From IMG/VR virus record IMGVR_UViG_2541047816_000002: 38,841 nucleotides of DNA; one strand, written 5' to 3'. Positions 1,422 through 12,165 of this stretch are shown here, one piece after another. The translations under genes and the position numbers were made by a program. Below the pieces are notes generated by a model that saw only the letters and a program-made list of their open reading frames with translations, was not told the DNA's origin and made no database searches. The DNA comes from a virus. Its lineage: Duplodnaviria; Heunggongvirae; Uroviricota; Caudoviricetes. The first letter of the stretch is position 1. Every line of letters starts with the position of its first letter.

Positions 1422-3893
1422 TTAAAAATCAGCCTGATTCGGGATCAGTTTTTGCCAGATAACTGAAACGTATTTTGCCTGGTAACGGGCGTCATCAAGT
1501 GCATTATGGCGCTCACCTTCGAATGGAATAGCCGTTCTGGCATCGAAGTCTATGGCTTTCCCCAGCTCAACGATTGTGCGTACATCGCGATCGTTGTAGT
1601 AACGCCATGGGCAGGGGATCCCCTGCCGTTCGTATGAACGGCGCAAAATCGTGTTGTCGAAGTTGGCTCCATTTCCCCAGACCTGAACAAAAAATTCGCC
1701 GGAGTTTTCGTCGATAAATTCCCGCAATTGCAGCAGTGCATCATCTAACGGGATTTCATCGGTCAGAATGGCAGATTGCGCCTCCCGTGATTGCTTAAGC
1801 CACCATTTAATGGTGCCACGATCAATGACTCCGCCAGCAGTATCCATATCGATGGTCTTACTAAATTCCGGCCCCATATCTCCGGTTTGCGGATCGAAAA
1901 ATATTGCACCTATTGAGATAAGCGGGGCATCGGGATTTTTTCCCATGGTTTCAAGGTTGATCATCATGTGGTGCCACATTCTGCTGGTGGATGTGATAAC
2001 GTGATGACCGTTCATCGCAATTAAGGGATCTGCCGTCTCGCCAGTTTCACTATCGCTGGCGTGATCCTGAGCGCTACCAGCATTCTCCTTGTGTGGATGT
2101 TCAGCGCCTTCCATTTCCTTCGGATCATTTTCCTGAACTTCAACCTGATTCTCTTCATCGAATGTTTCCTGGTATGTTGCGTCGCCCATTACCGCGCCAC
2201 AATCAGGGCAGTTGCCACCACCGCTTTGACCGCAGGCGGTGCAGACTTTTTCCGGTTCCTGTTGCGCTACTGGCTCAGGTTGTTTCGTTTCTGGCTCGTT
2301 TTGTAACGCATTTGGGCTGTTTTGTTCCGCTTTCTGGCCGTTCTGTTCCGTTTCTTGTTGGTTCTGATTCACTGAATCGCGGGTTTCAATCCCCTTCACC
2401 CATTTCGGATCATTCGGGTCGCTAATCCCTGCAACAAATTCACCACGTGATACAGCAAGCAACTTATTGGCGTCAGGCTGGCTGATATTGGCTGCCTGCA
2501 TAATTTTGTTTACTTCGTCAGCGGTAACTTTTACCGGCTCTGGTTGTGCGATCGTGTCAGATGCACCAGTATTTTGTTGTGAACCTGAGTATGTACTGTT
2601 TTTGCGGGCGAAATATTCTTCTTTCGTGATTTCAGTAGCCCCAGCAGACAGCGCCTTATCCAGACCAGAAAGTTTGTTTGCGCGACCGTATTTTTCGCCA
2701 TCCTTGTCGGTGAAGAGGAAGTAGAACGGCCCCTCACGTTCTACAGATGGTTCGACTTCCACTTTGCATTCGGTTTTTTCGTTGTCCGGAATTGCCGTTT
2801 CCACTGCATCAGTTTCTGGTACTGGCGACGAGAGAGTATCAGTTGCGCTCTGATTTGTTCCTTCATCTTCAAACACGCCCTTTGTAGTCAGGTATTCAGT
2901 AATGTATTTGTTCAGTGCCACAGGGTCTTTGTGAATGTCGATCGGACGTTCACGGACAAGGCCAAAAATAGTCTGGCGGTCGTAGCGAAGGGCATCAGGC
3001 TGTTTGCGCATTGATGCCGAGATACGCTTCCAGTCTTCGCGGTCGTTGTCGATAACTTCATTTTTTGCCCAGCGATGGATGCTGCCGTCAATGTTTCCGG
3101 CATCCACATCACCAGGCCAGAGAGCGTAGGCCAGTTCGTCATCCAGTGTTTTCCATGTCTGCTTGTATTCGCGATGAATGGCAGCAATGACCGGGTTGAT
3201 TTTTCCTGTTGAATTTTCAGTGTGCTGTTGATTGGCTCTGGCGCGGGCGAGATCAACAACAGACGTGTATTTTCCGGCTTCCTTGCGTTCACCTTCGCGA
3301 CGTTTTTTCCAGATGCGCATCTCTGCCTGAATTTCGGGCCATTTGGCACCAGGCTTACATTTATGCTTAACCCACCCGATGGCATGCAGCTTAAGCTCCG
3401 GATACATGGCGTTAACTTCTGGCATTTTCATCAACGCTTCAACGATATGTCCGTCGAATGTTGCCATGTCTTCCTGCAACAATTCCTGTGCGCTAATAAC
3501 CATATCAACGGTGATGTTTTCACATGTGTCGAACTTAACCATGACAGCGTTCTGTACTTCAGGGGCCAGCTTGTCAAAAGTGACGTTCATCGGATCGGAT
3601 TCAGTCTCAACCGGGACAAAGGAAGCAGACTCCTCATCCCAGCGGTTTTCCTGCATATATTCAGCATCCCAGGAATCGAGGGCAGGGCGGGGTATACCGG
3701 GTTTATCCTCGCAGACAAGAAATTTATAAGCGCAGTCCTGAGCAGCCGGATAATGCTCCAGGAATTGCCAGTGAAATTTTGCGCGGGCGCGACGTTCATC
3801 ACCGGCTTCAATGGCAGTGGCTACAGCGACGGCACCTTCTTCCTTTATTGCCTGTTCGTCCGGAATGGCGGCGCAAATAAAGACTTTACTCAT
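1422..3893 (-). CDS. Large early-operon protein with C-terminal DnaQ-like (DEDDh) 3'-5' exonuclease-like domain
   Basis: 823-aa ORF; RBS GAGGT 9 nt upstream of ATG at 3893; C-terminal ...ERHNALDDARYQAKY... resembles the DnaQ Exo III motif (H-x-A-L-x-D-A); internal CxxC...CxxC (CTACGQSGGGNCPDCG); acidic/Gln-rich linker. Confidence 0.6.
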   Translation of the reverse strand: MSKVFICAAIPDEQAIKEEGAVAVATAIEAGDERRARAKFHWQFLEHYPAAQDCAYKFLVCEDKPGIPRPALDSWDAEYMQENRWDEESASFVPVETESDPMNVTFDKLAPEVQNAVMVKFDTCENITVDMVISAQELLQEDMATFDGHIVEALMKMPEVNAMYPELKLHAIGWVKHKCKPGAKWPEIQAEMRIWKKRREGERKEAGKYTSVVDLARARANQQHTENSTGKINPVIAAIHREYKQTWKTLDDELAYALWPGDVDAGNIDGSIHRWAKNEVIDNDREDWKRISASMRKQPDALRYDRQTIFGLVRERPIDIHKDPVALNKYITEYLTTKGVFEDEGTNQSATDTLSSPVPETDAVETAIPDNEKTECKVEVEPSVEREGPFYFLFTDKDGEKYGRANKLSGLDKALSAGATEITKEEYFARKNSTYSGSQQNTGASDTIAQPEPVKVTADEVNKIMQAANISQPDANKLLAVSRGEFVAGISDPNDPKWVKGIETRDSVNQNQQETEQNGQKAEQNSPNALQNEPETKQPEPVAQQEPEKVCTACGQSGGGNCPDCGAVMGDATYQETFDEENQVEVQENDPKEMEGAEHPHKENAGSAQDHASDSETGETADPLIAMNGHHVITSTSRMWHHMMINLETMGKNPDAPLISIGAIFFDPQTGDMGPEFSKTIDMDTAGGVIDRGTIKWWLKQSREAQSAILTDEIPLDDALLQLREFIDENSGEFFVQVWGNGANFDNTILRRSYERQGIPCPWRYYNDRDVRTIVELGKAIDFDARTAIPFEGERHNALDDARYQAKYVSVIWQKLIPNQADF

Positions 3894-3985: not shown

Positions 3986-4177
3986 TTAAAGACCTGCCGG
4001 GATTTCGTTATTGTCCATGTGAATAACTTTATCGACCGGATAACAGTTGCCGGGAATTTTCTGTTCCGCTGCGGCAGCCATGCATTCTTTCATTGAGTTG
4101 TACATGCCGGTGATTGCATCAAGCGACTCACCAGTATTGAGATGTACAGTCAGAATGAGTACGAATAATGTGTTCAT
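3986..4177 (-). CDS. Small protein with N-terminal hydrophobic (signal/TM-like) segment
   Basis: ATG at 4177 preceded by GGAGAG; MNTLFVLILTVHL... hydrophobic N-terminus; start overlaps stop of upstream ORF (ATGA). Confidence 0.5.
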   Translation of the reverse strand: MNTLFVLILTVHLNTGESLDAITGMYNSMKECMAAAAEQKIPGNCYPVDKVIHMDNNEIPAGL

Positions 4178-4362
4178 CGCCACTCTCCGAAAATACCGAG
4201 TTTAAGAAGGGCAATTCTGGAGAGTATGGAATTGTCATTCAGCAGGTAGGGTTCATATTTTCTCATTTTGATTGCATCCTCGGTGAAATCCCTGTTACTG
4301 AGCAGAACACCAATATTAAAGCACCCGTCAGACGTATTAACGTTTGGTAGTGACGTTTCCAT
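4174..4362 (-). CDS. Hypothetical small protein
   Basis: 62-aa ORF; GAGGA RBS 8 nt upstream of ATG at 4362; lies 10 nt downstream of the Rha-like gene stop. Confidence 0.5.
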   Translation of the reverse strand: METSLPNVNTSDGCFNIGVLLSNRDFTEDAIKMRKYEPYLLNDNSILSRIALLKLGIFGEWR

Positions 4363-4372
4363 TATCGCGTCC

Positions 4373-4930
4373 TCAACTATGAATTTTTAGCAATTGCTCC
4401 ACAGTCATATTTTTAATTGCGCTCCGGTTTACAAGAGTCCATCCTTGTTTCTCCAGATAAAACCGGAAGGTATCCAGGGTGCAGACCATTGCGCCGTCAG
4501 GAACGGTTTCAGTGAATTTGATATTGCCGTGTTCGTCGAGACGGATAACCAGGGTGCGTCCGTCCCCGTGAATCATTTTGTCGGGAGACGGGGCGTTATT
4601 CTGGCGCAGTTCAGCTTCCATGCGGTCGAACTCAGCAATGTATGCCTCTTTAAATGCAGCGGCTTTTTTGCCAGTGAAGCCCATCACCAGGAAAACGAAG
4701 CCGTTTTTGGTGATTTGGTACATTGGGAGTTTGCGCCCGGTTGAGTCGGTGTATTCGCTCGACACAAAATTGTGCTCAGTGAATTTTGCTGAACAGTCCA
4801 GATTGCGAATTTTATCCAACACTCGTTCGTGGCGTTTGCCAAAGAACTCGGCGATCGCAACAGACGTAGTGACAGCGCGACCATTTTCGATGGTTACGTC
4901 AGGGTGAGAAAGGGTAAGGATAGTAGCCAT
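4373..4930 (-). CDS. Phage regulatory protein, Rha family
   Basis: Start chosen at internal ATG (4930) with GGAGG 8 nt upstream; the longer track ORF (to 5227) would run through an intrinsic terminator; contains ...KLPMYQITKNGFVFLVMGFTGKKAAAFKEAYIAEF... Rha-like core. Confidence 0.72.
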   Translation of the reverse strand: MATILTLSHPDVTIENGRAVTTSVAIAEFFGKRHERVLDKIRNLDCSAKFTEHNFVSSEYTDSTGRKLPMYQITKNGFVFLVMGFTGKKAAAFKEAYIAEFDRMEAELRQNNAPSPDKMIHGDGRTLVIRLDEHGNIKFTETVPDGAMVCTLDTFRFYLEKQGWTLVNRSAIKNMTVEQLLKIHS

Positions 4931-5099
4931 GATGGCAGCCTCCGCGATGAATTTGATTAACTCACCACCGAGGTTTTCCACGACCATAAGGGTGGTGAGA
5001 CGTACAGGGGTGGAAATACCGGTCATCACGGAACCCGGCCAGCCTTGCGGCTGCCCTGCACGCCCCACCATAATGCGAATGTGGCTGTGCTTAACGCAT

Positions 5100-5122
5100 A
5101 AAAAAACCGCCTGAGCGCGGTT
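5100..5122 (-). terminator. Rho-independent terminator for leftward transcription
   Basis: Minus-strand hairpin AACCGC-loop-GCGGTT followed by a T7 run (an A run on the plus strand). Confidence 0.6.
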
Positions 5123-5799
5123 ATGCGCCGTGAATGATTTCGGGTTTCCACGCCCGGCACCCGTTTTATGAGGTGCAGGTGCACTATAATTCCACCCGTT
5201 CTGGTTTTCAATAGCTACATTCAACATTTTCTCTCACCTTTTCAGCGGAGTGAACTTTGTGATGCAGTGCCTGGTGCCTCCAGGTGACGTTAACCAGTTA
5301 ACAATTAACGCCGGATACAGAGAATCCACCCATAACACTGTTTTTGGTTTTAACTGTTCCGCGTGCGCTGAGCCGCATTCACCGCATCACAAAATTCACT
5401 TTAAAAAGGGCGGCAGAGCAGTCACGGAGTAAAACTGATACCGCCAAACGTCACCAGAAAATTGATAACAGAGGGCGTTGCAGCGGGGTTGTCACTTAAG
5501 CGTATGGTCAACCTGACAACCCGGTGTCCTCAACGGGGGAAGGAATAACCCCGCCATACTTACCGCCGCGCCATTTCGCGGATTGCCACAACCGGAAGCG
5601 CACGGTCGACGAAAATTTAACGACAGGCTATCTATGAACCAGCTACCTCGCCGTGCGCTTTCGCGTTATGGTCTGACTTTTCAGGGAAATATCCTTTCAG
5701 TAAACTGTCAGTGCCGGATTCTTATCCGTGTCCGGCGCACGACCACACGCTGTCACGAGAGGTCTCCATTCTCAACCAGTAACCTCAATGGAGGATAAA

Positions 5800-5994
5800 A
5801 TGTCAGAGCAGGAGTTAAAACTTGGTGCATGTTATTGTGTTCTCAAGGAGCTGGTACACATGCTTCCATCTACTCAGTATCAACAGTTAGTTGGCAATTT
5901 AAATCAGCGAATCGAAGCTATGTTAAAATCTGATGGTTTTAATAACGTAGAAACGCTGATGCTAAAAAGATATCTTGATGGATTAATCAGATAA
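5800..5994 (+). CDS. Hypothetical small protein (64 aa), rightward-oriented inside the leftward early region
   Basis: ATG at 5800 with GGAGG RBS (aatGGAGGataaaATG); 3' end overlaps the convergent minus-strand gene by 12 nt. Confidence 0.5.
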   Translation: MSEQELKLGACYCVLKELVHMLPSTQYQQLVGNLNQRIEAMLKSDGFNNVETLMLKRYLDGLIR

Positions 5995-6333
5995 CATTTT
6001 TTTACGGCGTTCATATTCGTTAATATTTATGAAGCCTGTTGCCAGAAGCAGTTCGTTAATTTCATGGTTGTTTGGCTGTTTCTGGCTCTTTGAACTGGGA
6101 TCTTCCACTTCTTTTTCTGCAAATTGTTTTGCTGTATCCTCTGTGCCATGGATATTTAAAGCTGTATCTGAAAACAGCCCAGTAAACGCATCGCGCACAT
6201 TACGAGCCATATTATCAGTGTCTTTTTTTGTTACCGATTCCAATTCAAGTTCGTTCAGACGATGACGAAGTGTGTGTGCTGCAATCTCCTGGATTGAAGG
6301 AGGTAAATCTTTAAATTCCATCGTCAACCTCAT
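5983..6333 (-). CDS. Hypothetical protein (116 aa; alternative start MEFKDL... at 6321)
   Basis: ATG overlaps stop of upstream gene (TGATG coupling); second ATG 4 codons in has GAGG RBS. Confidence 0.55.
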   Translation of the reverse strand: MRLTMEFKDLPPSIQEIAAHTLRHRLNELELESVTKKDTDNMARNVRDAFTGLFSDTALNIHGTEDTAKQFAEKEVEDPSSKSQKQPNNHEINELLLATGFININEYERRKKMLSD

Positions 6334-6485
6334 CAGTCAGTGTTTCTGGCTAACCAGCGACGCGCGCCAGCTGCGGTTTTAAACGTTTTGCTTTTGGTAT
6401 ACGTCATCGCGGTGAACGTACCGTCCTGGTTTGGGAACACACCACATACCAGAGATTCGCTGTTGCCAAGATCGATAGTATCCAT
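6333..6485 (-). CDS. Hypothetical small protein (50 aa), first gene downstream of the left operator region
   Basis: ATG at 6485 with GAGGT RBS; not Arg-rich, so not an N-like antiterminator. Confidence 0.45.
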   Translation of the reverse strand: MDTIDLGNSESLVCGVFPNQDGTFTAMTYTKSKTFKTAAGARRWLARNTD

Positions 6486-6671: not shown

Positions 6672-6708
6672 TACCCATAGGTATTTAAAAAGTAAATACC
6701 CATGGGTA
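6672..6708. promoter_or_regulatory. Left operator-like region: two palindromic TACC-N4-GGTA sites (6672-6683, 6697-6708)
   Basis: tacccataggta and tacccatgggta (perfect palindrome) between repressor stop and the first leftward gene. Confidence 0.55.
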
Positions 6709-6750: not shown

Positions 6751-7170
6751 CTATGATGCGTTTTGTGCTTTCTTTTTACGGATTTCTTCGTAGATCATAT
6801 TGTAATACTGTTTTTTCTCTTCAAGAGTTTTTAATAATTTATCCGCTTCACTTTCTGGCAGTTCGTCTAAGAGATCTAAAAAAATACGTTGTCGTGGCGT
6901 TAGAACCCTTGTTTCATAACTGGAGGCTGTGTTCGTTGATGATGAAACGATACCATCCATCCATCCCCGGGGTAACCCAAAGGACTCTTCGATAATCTCC
7001 ACCATATCATCAGCGATCCGTTTTTTTCCCTTTTTCCCCTCTGGGTACAACATTCTTGATACATAAGAAGGCTCGCGCCCGATCTTTCTGGCCACGTTAA
7101 CCGCTTTACCATCGCATTTCTCATCACGAATTTTGATGAGTTGCTGTCGTCTAAATTCATATTTGTCCAT
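6751..7170 (-). CDS. Prophage repressor, HTH protein without a LexA-like peptidase domain
   Basis: 139 aa; divergent from a Cro-like gene; CII/Cro-like HTH segment ...GKAVNVARKIGREPSYVSRML...; no Ser/Lys autocleavage module evident. Confidence 0.65.
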   Translation of the reverse strand: MDKYEFRRQQLIKIRDEKCDGKAVNVARKIGREPSYVSRMLYPEGKKGKKRIADDMVEIIEESFGLPRGWMDGIVSSSTNTASSYETRVLTPRQRIFLDLLDELPESEADKLLKTLEEKKQYYNMIYEEIRKKKAQNAS

Positions 7171-7190
7171 AGGTAAATAATAGATGCGAT

Positions 7191-7246
7191 TACCGCAAGG
7201 TAAACAACCTGTGGGTATTGACTTTTGTTTACCTGTGGGTATTCTT
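7191..7246. promoter_or_regulatory. Right operator/promoter region: three TACC-N4-GGTA-like sites (7191-7202, 7206-7217, 7230-7241) overlapping a rightward promoter (-35 TTGACT 7218-7223, -10 TATTCT 7240-7245)
   Basis: Repeated operator motif between divergent repressor and Cro-like genes; RBS AGGAG at 7261. Confidence 0.55.
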
Positions 7247-11772: not shown

Positions 11773-12009
11773 TTTTATGGATCACCTTTCTGATTGATTT
11801 CATATTGGCGAGGTGACGTGAGTTAAGTAGAATGGCTGCGGGTGCTTGAGGCTATCTGTCTCAGGCATGAACACTGAAAGGCAGATAGAGAAAAGCCCCA
11901 GTTAACATTTCGCGTCCTGCAAGACGCTTAACATTAATCTGAGGCCCAATCTATGTCTCACAAATGTAGGTTAGCCTCTTACGTGCCGAAAGGCAAGGGG
12001 AAGCAGGCT

Positions 12010-12165
12010 ATGAAGCAGCAAAAGGCGATGTTAATCGCCCTGATCGTCATCTGTTTAACCGTCATAGTGACGGCACTGGTAACGAGGAAAGACCTCTGCG
12101 AGGTACGAATCCGAACCGGCCAGACGGAGGTCGCTGTCTTCACAGCTTACGAACCTGAGGAGTAA
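12010..12165 (+). CDS. hok: Hok/Gef-family type I toxin (small membrane peptide)
   Basis: MKQQKAMLIALIVICLTVIVTALVTRKDLCEVRIRTGQTEVAVFTAYEPEE matches recalled HokD/RelF; intrinsic terminator follows. Confidence 0.85.
   Translation: MKQQKAMLIALIVICLTVIVTALVTRKDLCEVRIRTGQTEVAVFTAYEPEE

Follow-up and report, generated by a model that had tools for sequence, protein, structure and literature searches.

A convergent pair of small genes at positions 5800 to 6333 of the window (the whole 38,841-nucleotide stretch of DNA analyzed here) forms, as comparison with related prophages shows, an AT-rich, exchangeable cassette. It lies in the early-left operon, dicBF, of an E. coli prophage that is lambdoid and Qin/Rac-like. 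The pair bears the marks of a moron, namely an inserted unit, atypical composition and presence/absence variation, and both of its ORFs are real genes under purifying selection (pN/pS about 0.3). We tentatively favor the explanation that this is a moron cassette expressed in the lysogen, that it sits in the operon's sieB slot, and that the product of its rightward, 64-aa gene may be a modulator resembling anti-adaptors of the IraP type.

Several E. coli chromosomes contain prophage regions with 100% identity to this part of the window. The features annotated there are, in left-to-right order, excisionase, exonuclease, DUF1482, DicB, Rha, DicB fragment, WP_001295058.1, a fragment flagged as pseudogenic, DUF1391, repressor, Cro-like regulator and YdaT. 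An initial annotation of the window had described the pair as embedded in a leftward early operon; the chromosomal annotation and an Rfam match to DicF agree with this and identify the region as the early-left dicBF operon. The features considered here are:

5408 to 5459, minus strand: DicF small RNA gene (Rfam RF00039, 76.7 bits against a gathering threshold of 48, E 2.2e-15, full model, 1-52)
5701 to 5706, plus strand: -10-like hexamer TAAACT, 6 nt ahead of hairpin H1, putatively part of a promoter for the rightward gene
5711 to 5738, plus strand: leader hairpin H1 (GUGCCGGA..UCCGGCGC), predicted in 11 of 11 leader variants
5741 to 5764, plus strand: predicted leader hairpin H2, degenerate in the window, recognized from comparative stem changes
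5764 to 5794, plus strand: predicted leader hairpin H3, pairing the anti-Shine-Dalgarno sequence CTCCATT (5764-5770) with AATGGAG (5787-5793) and overlapping the Shine-Dalgarno sequence GGAGG (5790-5794)
5800 to 5994, plus strand: 64-aa gene, PHROG 4987, IraP-like (PF10796-related), predicted three-helix protein
5983 to 6321, minus strand: leftward early gene, 112 aa (116 aa from the ATG at 6333), with homologues that start MEFKDLP
5986 to 6066, minus strand: conserved tail (HEINELLLATGFININEYERRKKMLSD) at the C-terminus of the leftward protein, inherited together with the 64-aa gene
6170 to 6321, minus strand: conserved N-terminal domain of the leftward protein, from alignment, with a BLAST boundary at 6170 against prophage L010
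6333 to 6485, minus strand: ydfA-like DUF1391 gene, the first gene of the left operon (PF07151, E 4.8e-28; PGAP annotation)
6672 to 6708, no strand assigned: two operator-like palindromes (TACCCATAGGTA, TACCCATGGGTA) at the left promoter, found by pattern search

The palindromes at 6672-6708 presumably act as OL; on the minus strand they score, in addition, as a terminator-like hairpin. Three further operator-like palindromes, degenerate in sequence, lie at the right promoter (7164-7241), and TACCYATRGGTA is the pattern for both groups. Besides the intact dicB gene (4174-4362), PGAP annotates an incomplete DicB fragment on the minus strand at 5252-5338, which probably marks the junction at which a Rha module was inserted. 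The Rha/Ash-domain gene itself (4373-5227, minus strand) is inserted between dicF and dicB. Within the 5' part of its ORF, and on the same strand, are matches to an IsrK-like RNA (5100-5176, 67.7 bits) and a C4 antisense-like RNA (4988-5075, 81.9 bits). Neither the O104:H4 nor the Tritos version of the operon has the module, and we take it to resemble antirepressor control of the P1/P7 immI or Gifsy isrK type. At a distance from the operon, a match to the sok antitoxin RNA (11840-12015, plus strand, 120.5 bits) implies a hok/sok locus in the prophage, and the plus-strand stretches 16906-17152 and 17232-17909 hold three tRNA genes and, behind them, two copies of the STnc100 small RNA (136 and 161 bits).

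A rightward 64-aa gene with a GGAGG ribosome binding site, converging on a leftward gene with 12 bp of 3' overlap, had been reported from the initial inspection of the sequence, and all of these elements are present. The ORF begins with an ATG at 5800, 5 nt behind the GGAGG at 5790-5794, and stops at 5992-5994; it shares positions 5983-5994 with a leftward ORF that, read from its first ATG, spans 5983-6333 and encodes 116 aa. Conservation of the 64-aa frame, on which the original proposal had been made to depend, was examined in six lineages: the window, Salmonella L005 and L042, L044, the metagenome contig L041 and Citrobacter L004. Out of six reading frames, none but the sense frame stays free of stops throughout these lineages, and its pN/pS is 0.28. 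The codon-aligned antisense frame has a pN/pS of 0.37, yet it contains 4-6 stops in each and every lineage, and values for the remaining four frames range from 0.76 to 1.73. Variable columns are concentrated at the third codon position (26, against 12 at the first position and 11 at the second). The Shine-Dalgarno sequence and start codon are invariant, and relatives with 36-45% identity keep both the length and the context of the gene.

The exact 64-aa protein is present on at least 1000 contigs. Its RefSeq entry, WP_001295058.1, is named hypothetical, and a match to PHROG 4987 covers the protein from end to end (E 3.1e-49). An AF2 model predicts three helices, with a mean pLDDT of 80. No match to the protein was found in NCBIfam or PADLOC, or by tblastn in 50,697 phage records, and relatives were absent from the GTDB species-representative genomes, which were scanned twice. 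Scans of IMG/VR and metagenomes returned only identical or near-identical E. coli copies of the gene; the diversity of the family is thus limited to the six lineages and two more distant members. A literature search by protein accession and locus tags found nothing. The gene is in the databases only as "hypothetical" or, in two species, under the automatically assigned name IraP. In four complete genomes (CU37RT-2, GN02050, GN06667 and GN05476) the region is 11 bp shorter, corresponding to window positions 5968-5978. The bases missing from CU37RT-2 are ATATCTTGATG; the last seven codons of its 64-aa gene are replaced, and PGAP does not annotate the gene. This deletion looks like occasional decay of the cassette.

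The start of the leftward gene was reconsidered. Database homologues of its product have the N-terminus MEFKDLP; in Salmonella the gene has no in-frame ATG farther upstream but retains GAGG-N6-ATG. A start at 6321, 11 nt past the stop of the ydfA-like gene, is therefore probable and gives a protein of 112 aa. The TGATG junction with the 6333-6485 gene, from which translational coupling had been proposed, is present, but with a start probably at 6321 the coupling itself is doubtful. The position of the stop shifts among relatives, whose proteins end in ..LSD, ..LSDQPIKISF or ..KKNVI, so that the 3' overlap is 12, 33 or 8 bp. For the leftward gene, pN/pS is 0.40 across the N-terminal 50 codons and 0.30 for the C-terminal block. 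PHROG 2151 matches the N-terminal half of the protein (E 2.1e-55), and PGAP calls only 6171-6321, which it treats as a pseudogene fragment. The N-terminal domain is common to many prophage genes with differing C-termini, and its coding region (6170-6321) is the right-hand recombination flank of the cassette.

The segment 5742-6170 was found in 152 of 5426 complete E. coli genomes, O104:H4 strains included, and 148 of the 152 copies are at least 99% identical. Another 82 genomes have a partial match; those sampled match the leader of about 60 nt only, and two of these partial-match genomes have other rightward genes behind the leader, of 69 aa (PHROG 4274) and about 98 aa. Boundaries of the mosaic lie at 5741/5742, 5801, 6170 and 6341/6342. 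Compared with prophages of the arrangement ydfA-ydfB-ydfC-dicF (e.g., Tritos), the window differs from 5742 to 6341; compared with prophage L010, which carries another rightward gene, it differs only at 5802-6169. GC content is 32-40% inside the cassette versus about 50% outside. Salmonella L005 (5868-6195 and 6557-6897) and Citrobacter L004 (290-831) carry the 64-aa and 69-aa genes in tandem, and in the Salmonella tandem each cassette has its own copy of a leader of about 130 nt. In the Rac-type phage ON470614.1 the same slot is occupied by sieB, which is likewise rightward and converges on the DUF1391 gene. At all loci seen, the 64-aa gene lies within the early-left region of a prophage. Prophage L010 contains a third type of cassette, with an ORF of about 98 aa (1487-1864, plus strand) behind the same leader; PGAP leaves this ORF unannotated, and it overlaps the converging leftward gene (1734-2135, minus strand) by about 130 bp.

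What travels with the 64-aa gene is the very end of its leftward partner. A motif of about 25 aa, LLLxAG(F/L/M)I(N/S)xxE(Y/F)..(R/K), forms the end of the partner gene in every partner-bearing lineage; beyond the window these are Salmonella, L041, L044, Edwardsiella and Salmonella L052. The tail reads ..NELLLATGFININEYERRKKMLSD in the window partner, ..NTLLLDAGFINISEYNRREKMLSD in L041, ..ERERLLLDAGLISMAEFTSKYGSI in the 74-aa partner of Edwardsiella and ..LRLDIGMMSMAEYTSRHGTNFTD in the 186-aa HTH partner of Salmonella L052. Outside the tail, partner sequences belong to three unrelated families. Serine codons in the tail are TCA in one lineage and AGC in another, which shows selection on the peptide and not on the DNA. 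An AF2 model of the tail shows two short helices following a disordered linker. Other cassettes in the slot combine a different rightward gene with a different partner C-terminus, and Citrobacter has kept the 64-aa gene and lost nearly all of the leftward partner. The idea that the tail mimics a segment of RssB was considered and rejected, as local alignments were no better than those with shuffled sequences.

The stretch upstream of the 64-aa gene (5230-5800, about 570 bp) had been regarded as non-coding and as containing two inverted repeats. The GCCGGA..TCCGGC repeat is confirmed as a hairpin at 5713-5736 with a full stem of 5711-5738, and the other repeat (GTTAACcagTTAAC) has arms of only 5 bp. 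The stretch is not empty, however: it holds the DicF gene, which is annotated at the same place in phage Tritos, as well as the DicB fragment and a conserved leader. This leader is found in E. coli, Salmonella, Citrobacter and Edwardsiella. All rightward genes of the slot, whether of 64, 69 or about 98 aa, have it in common, with the same succession of -10-like hexamer, H1, H2 and H3. The A/T-rich hexamer (TAAACT, TATAAC or TAAAAT) stands at a constant distance from H1 in the E. coli, Salmonella and metagenome variants, and the sequence upstream of it differs among them. A scan with promoter consensus sequences yielded no passing promoter upstream of 5800, TAAACT itself being below threshold, and the promoter that we propose for the 64-aa gene is therefore deduced from this positional conservation. 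No rightward-strand terminator was detected by scan at the 64-aa gene, and no repressor operator was found near the leader by pattern search.

Among the 11 leader variants, the five core pairs of H1 are invariant. H1 is also found in the Edwardsiella and Salmonella relatives, and it marks the mosaic boundary with ydfBC-type prophages at 5741/5742. The H2 stem differs in sequence from lineage to lineage in three cases (ACACG/CGTGT, CTCCAT/ATGGAG and CCCAAC/GTTGGG). In the 11-sequence alignment five leader pairs show compensatory changes, altered on both sides, and four of the five are in H2; in the window the H2 stem is broken by two substitutions. Both arms of H3 are invariant in all 11 variants, including the leaders of the 69-aa and ~98-aa genes, and H3 is part of the minimum-free-energy fold of the window, Citrobacter, L048 and L052 leaders. 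Over the alignment, 88% of cells are paired versus 25-47% with the partners slid, a comparison that is inflated because the structure was derived from the same 11 sequences. The folding energy of the whole leader in the window is not unusual (z = -1.1), and the case for the predicted hairpins is a purely comparative one.

IraP is a host anti-adaptor that blocks RssB and thereby protects the stress sigma factor RpoS from degradation. Its Pfam family, PF10796, was the top Pfam match for all members of the 64-aa family tested but P0174. The window protein scores below the Pfam threshold of 23.2 bits (14.4 bits, E 0.062); E-values are 0.072 for P0003 and 0.0018 for the core of P0004, and the Citrobacter protein, P0006, is above threshold (24.2 bits, E 5.6e-5). 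A profile search of 1.84 billion representative proteins added only two relatives, P0173 from Edwardsiella tarda (67 aa, E 2.6e-11 to the family profile) and P0174 from Salmonella (65 aa, E 3.9e-5). P0173 also exceeds the PF10796 threshold (24.5 bits against 23.2, E 4.6e-5), with residues 3-65 aligned to profile positions 20-83. In hhalign comparisons with an IraP alignment the E-value fell from 0.005 to 5.4e-4 once these two proteins were added, at probabilities of 7-30%. Reciprocal HMM tests, of the family against an IraP model and of IraP against a family model, gave scores that beat 99-100% of shuffles. NCBI names the Edwardsiella and Citrobacter members IraP, and the best score against the NCBIfam IraP equivalog NF007598 is 26.8 bits (cut-off, 78). 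BLASTP against E. coli IraP found no similarity. Nothing significant was obtained from a search of PDB chain sequences or from Foldseek against PDB and a viral library; fold searches are uninformative for a small helical bundle such as this.

The family is natively 64-67 aa long, short of the approximately 86 aa of full-length IraP, and has no equivalent of IraP residues 1 to about 19. We rejected the possibility that the E. coli gene is a truncated full-length iraP. The apparent N-terminal "extension" of the Citrobacter and L041 genes is the shared leader and not the IraP N-terminus, because it precedes unrelated genes and is out of frame or interrupted by stops in E. coli and Salmonella; moreover, the distant members are natively 65-67 aa. 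In IraP the N-terminus is a predicted coiled coil (residues 1-35), within which the substitution L9S lowers activity (PMC4428439). On these similarities the 64-aa protein is probably a remote homologue of IraP. That it also functions as an RssB anti-adaptor is possible but somewhat unlikely.

Under the explanation that we favor, the cassette would have three parts: the structured leader, the 64-aa gene, and the 3' end of the converging early gene with its conserved tail of about 25 aa. In the lysogen, while the left promoter is repressed, the 64-aa gene would be transcribed rightward from its own promoter, and its translation may be gated by H3, which would sequester the Shine-Dalgarno sequence. 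The product may act as a small, protein-binding modulator of the anti-adaptor type, for which RssB would be the leading candidate target. The geometry suggests that, upon induction, leftward transcription of the dicBF precursor would run antisense across the 64-aa gene and shut it off. A further reading, which we consider quite unlikely, is that the slot holds a family of two-part exchangeable cassettes, each providing a small protein made in the lysogen and, encoded on the other strand, a cognate C-terminal tail grafted onto any early-lytic gene that the cassette enters. The IraP-like protein and its tail would then bind each other, coupling host RpoS/RssB control, or an exclusion activity, to the lysogeny-lysis state.

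The main rival explanation is that the two proteins are a cognate pair. The 64-aa protein, made in the lysogen, would target the tail of the converging early protein, made after induction, so that the two would be state-dependent antagonists with a logic like that of sieB/esc; the likeness to IraP would then reflect only a shared small protein-binding fold. The constancy of the tail motif on partners that otherwise belong to three unrelated families would fit such a pair, as would the peptide-level selection evident from its codon usage and the matching, in other cassettes of the slot, of different rightward genes with different partner C-termini. However, the 64-aa gene is retained in Citrobacter with the partner nearly all lost, and the 3' overlap means that any recombination moving the gene brings at least the last partner codons with it; we regard a cognate pair as unlikely. 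We are also disinclined to believe that the 64-aa gene is a lysogenic-conversion gene of unrelated function whose similarity to IraP is a compositional or helical coincidence. The negative pairwise BLAST, the low hhalign probability and the absence from the family of the N-terminal coiled-coil half of IraP would all be expected of a coincidence. It is harder to reconcile with a reciprocal match in which six sequences align colinearly, and in one register, along about 60 residues, with two members above Pfam's curated threshold and with scores that exceed those of shuffled controls.

The initial annotation itself had pointed to a toxin-antitoxin or superinfection-exclusion pair, on the grounds that the position is typical of such genes. 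As to position it was right, since sieB of ON470614.1 has the same slot and orientation, and a small, convergent, overlapping pair would suit such a role. A toxin or exclusion function is unsupported, however: PADLOC and NCBIfam gave no match, the only Pfam signal for the window's 64-aa protein is the sub-threshold one to IraP, and its AF2 model is a small three-helix bundle. In addition, the opposing transcripts would be oppositely regulated, unlike those of type II toxin-antitoxin operons, and in Citrobacter the rightward gene has outlasted its partner, most of which is gone. We therefore consider this proposal improbable. It is hardly credible that the 64-aa ORF is a chance antisense frame that is not expressed. 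Such a view could appeal to PGAP's omission of the copy with the 11-bp deletion and to the failure of the scan to find a canonical promoter, but it would have to account for the sole open frame in six lineages, the pN/pS of 0.28, the third-position enrichment, the invariant Shine-Dalgarno sequence and start, and the retention of length and context in relatives of 36-45% identity.

If the 64-aa protein does block RssB, RpoS levels would be higher in bacteria that carry this widespread prophage cassette, and lysogeny would be linked to stress tolerance and the expression of virulence genes. The cassette is carried by about 3% of complete E. coli genomes, the O104:H4 outbreak lineage among them, and is present in Salmonella, Citrobacter and Edwardsiella as well. 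The protein would also represent a minimal fold of the IraP type, one that has no N-terminal coiled coil, the presumed site of contact with RssB. Whatever the function, the leader and the co-travelling tail show the dicBF operon to be a hot spot at which counter-oriented genes are swapped. Any transcript running rightward here would be complementary to the DicF/DicB precursor, with possible effects on the control of those toxic products.

Among known systems, IraP (YaiB) of E. coli and Salmonella (PF10796) is, like the 64-aa protein, small, helical and restricted to enterobacteria. The likeness is colinear from about residue 20 to about residue 83 of IraP and includes a common C-terminal helix, D/E-T-x-L-L-x-x-Y-(V/L)-x-x-L-(L/I)-(R/K). 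The 64-aa family differs in its length (64-67 aa versus 86 aa) and in missing the first 19 or so residues, L9 included. Its genes are prophage-borne, whereas iraP of K-12 lies between ddlA and phoA. The sieB gene of lambda, P22 and Rac takes the same slot, rightward between the kil/dicB side and the DUF1391 gene, and in lambda it is expressed from the prophage. There is no sequence relation between the two, as the 64-aa protein matches PF10796 and phrog_4987 only, and SieB is a protein of about 200 aa (CDS of 612 bp in ON470614.1), compared with a predicted small helical bundle of 64 aa. Nor does the pair resemble a type II toxin-antitoxin system, since PADLOC and NCBIfam gave no match to a toxin, antitoxin or defense family, Pfam gave only sub-threshold matches, and its genes are convergent instead of co-transcribed. 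A precedent for a prophage-borne anti-adaptor is iraM on the e14 prophage, and the anti-adaptors of K-12 have no mutual sequence identity (PMC4045071). IraM of e14 and IraL are likewise anti-adaptors encoded on a prophage or genomic island, but their protein family is different from that of the 64-aa protein. The Qin dicBF operon (ydfABC-dicF-dicB-ydfDE; PMC10448788) shares the backbone of the window, with DUF1391/ydfA, DicF, DicB, DUF1482/ydfD and control by a repressor. Relative to Qin, the window carries the Rha/isrK/C4 module between dicF and dicB and, at 5742-6341, has the 112-aa gene and the counter-oriented 64-aa gene in place of ydfB and ydfC.
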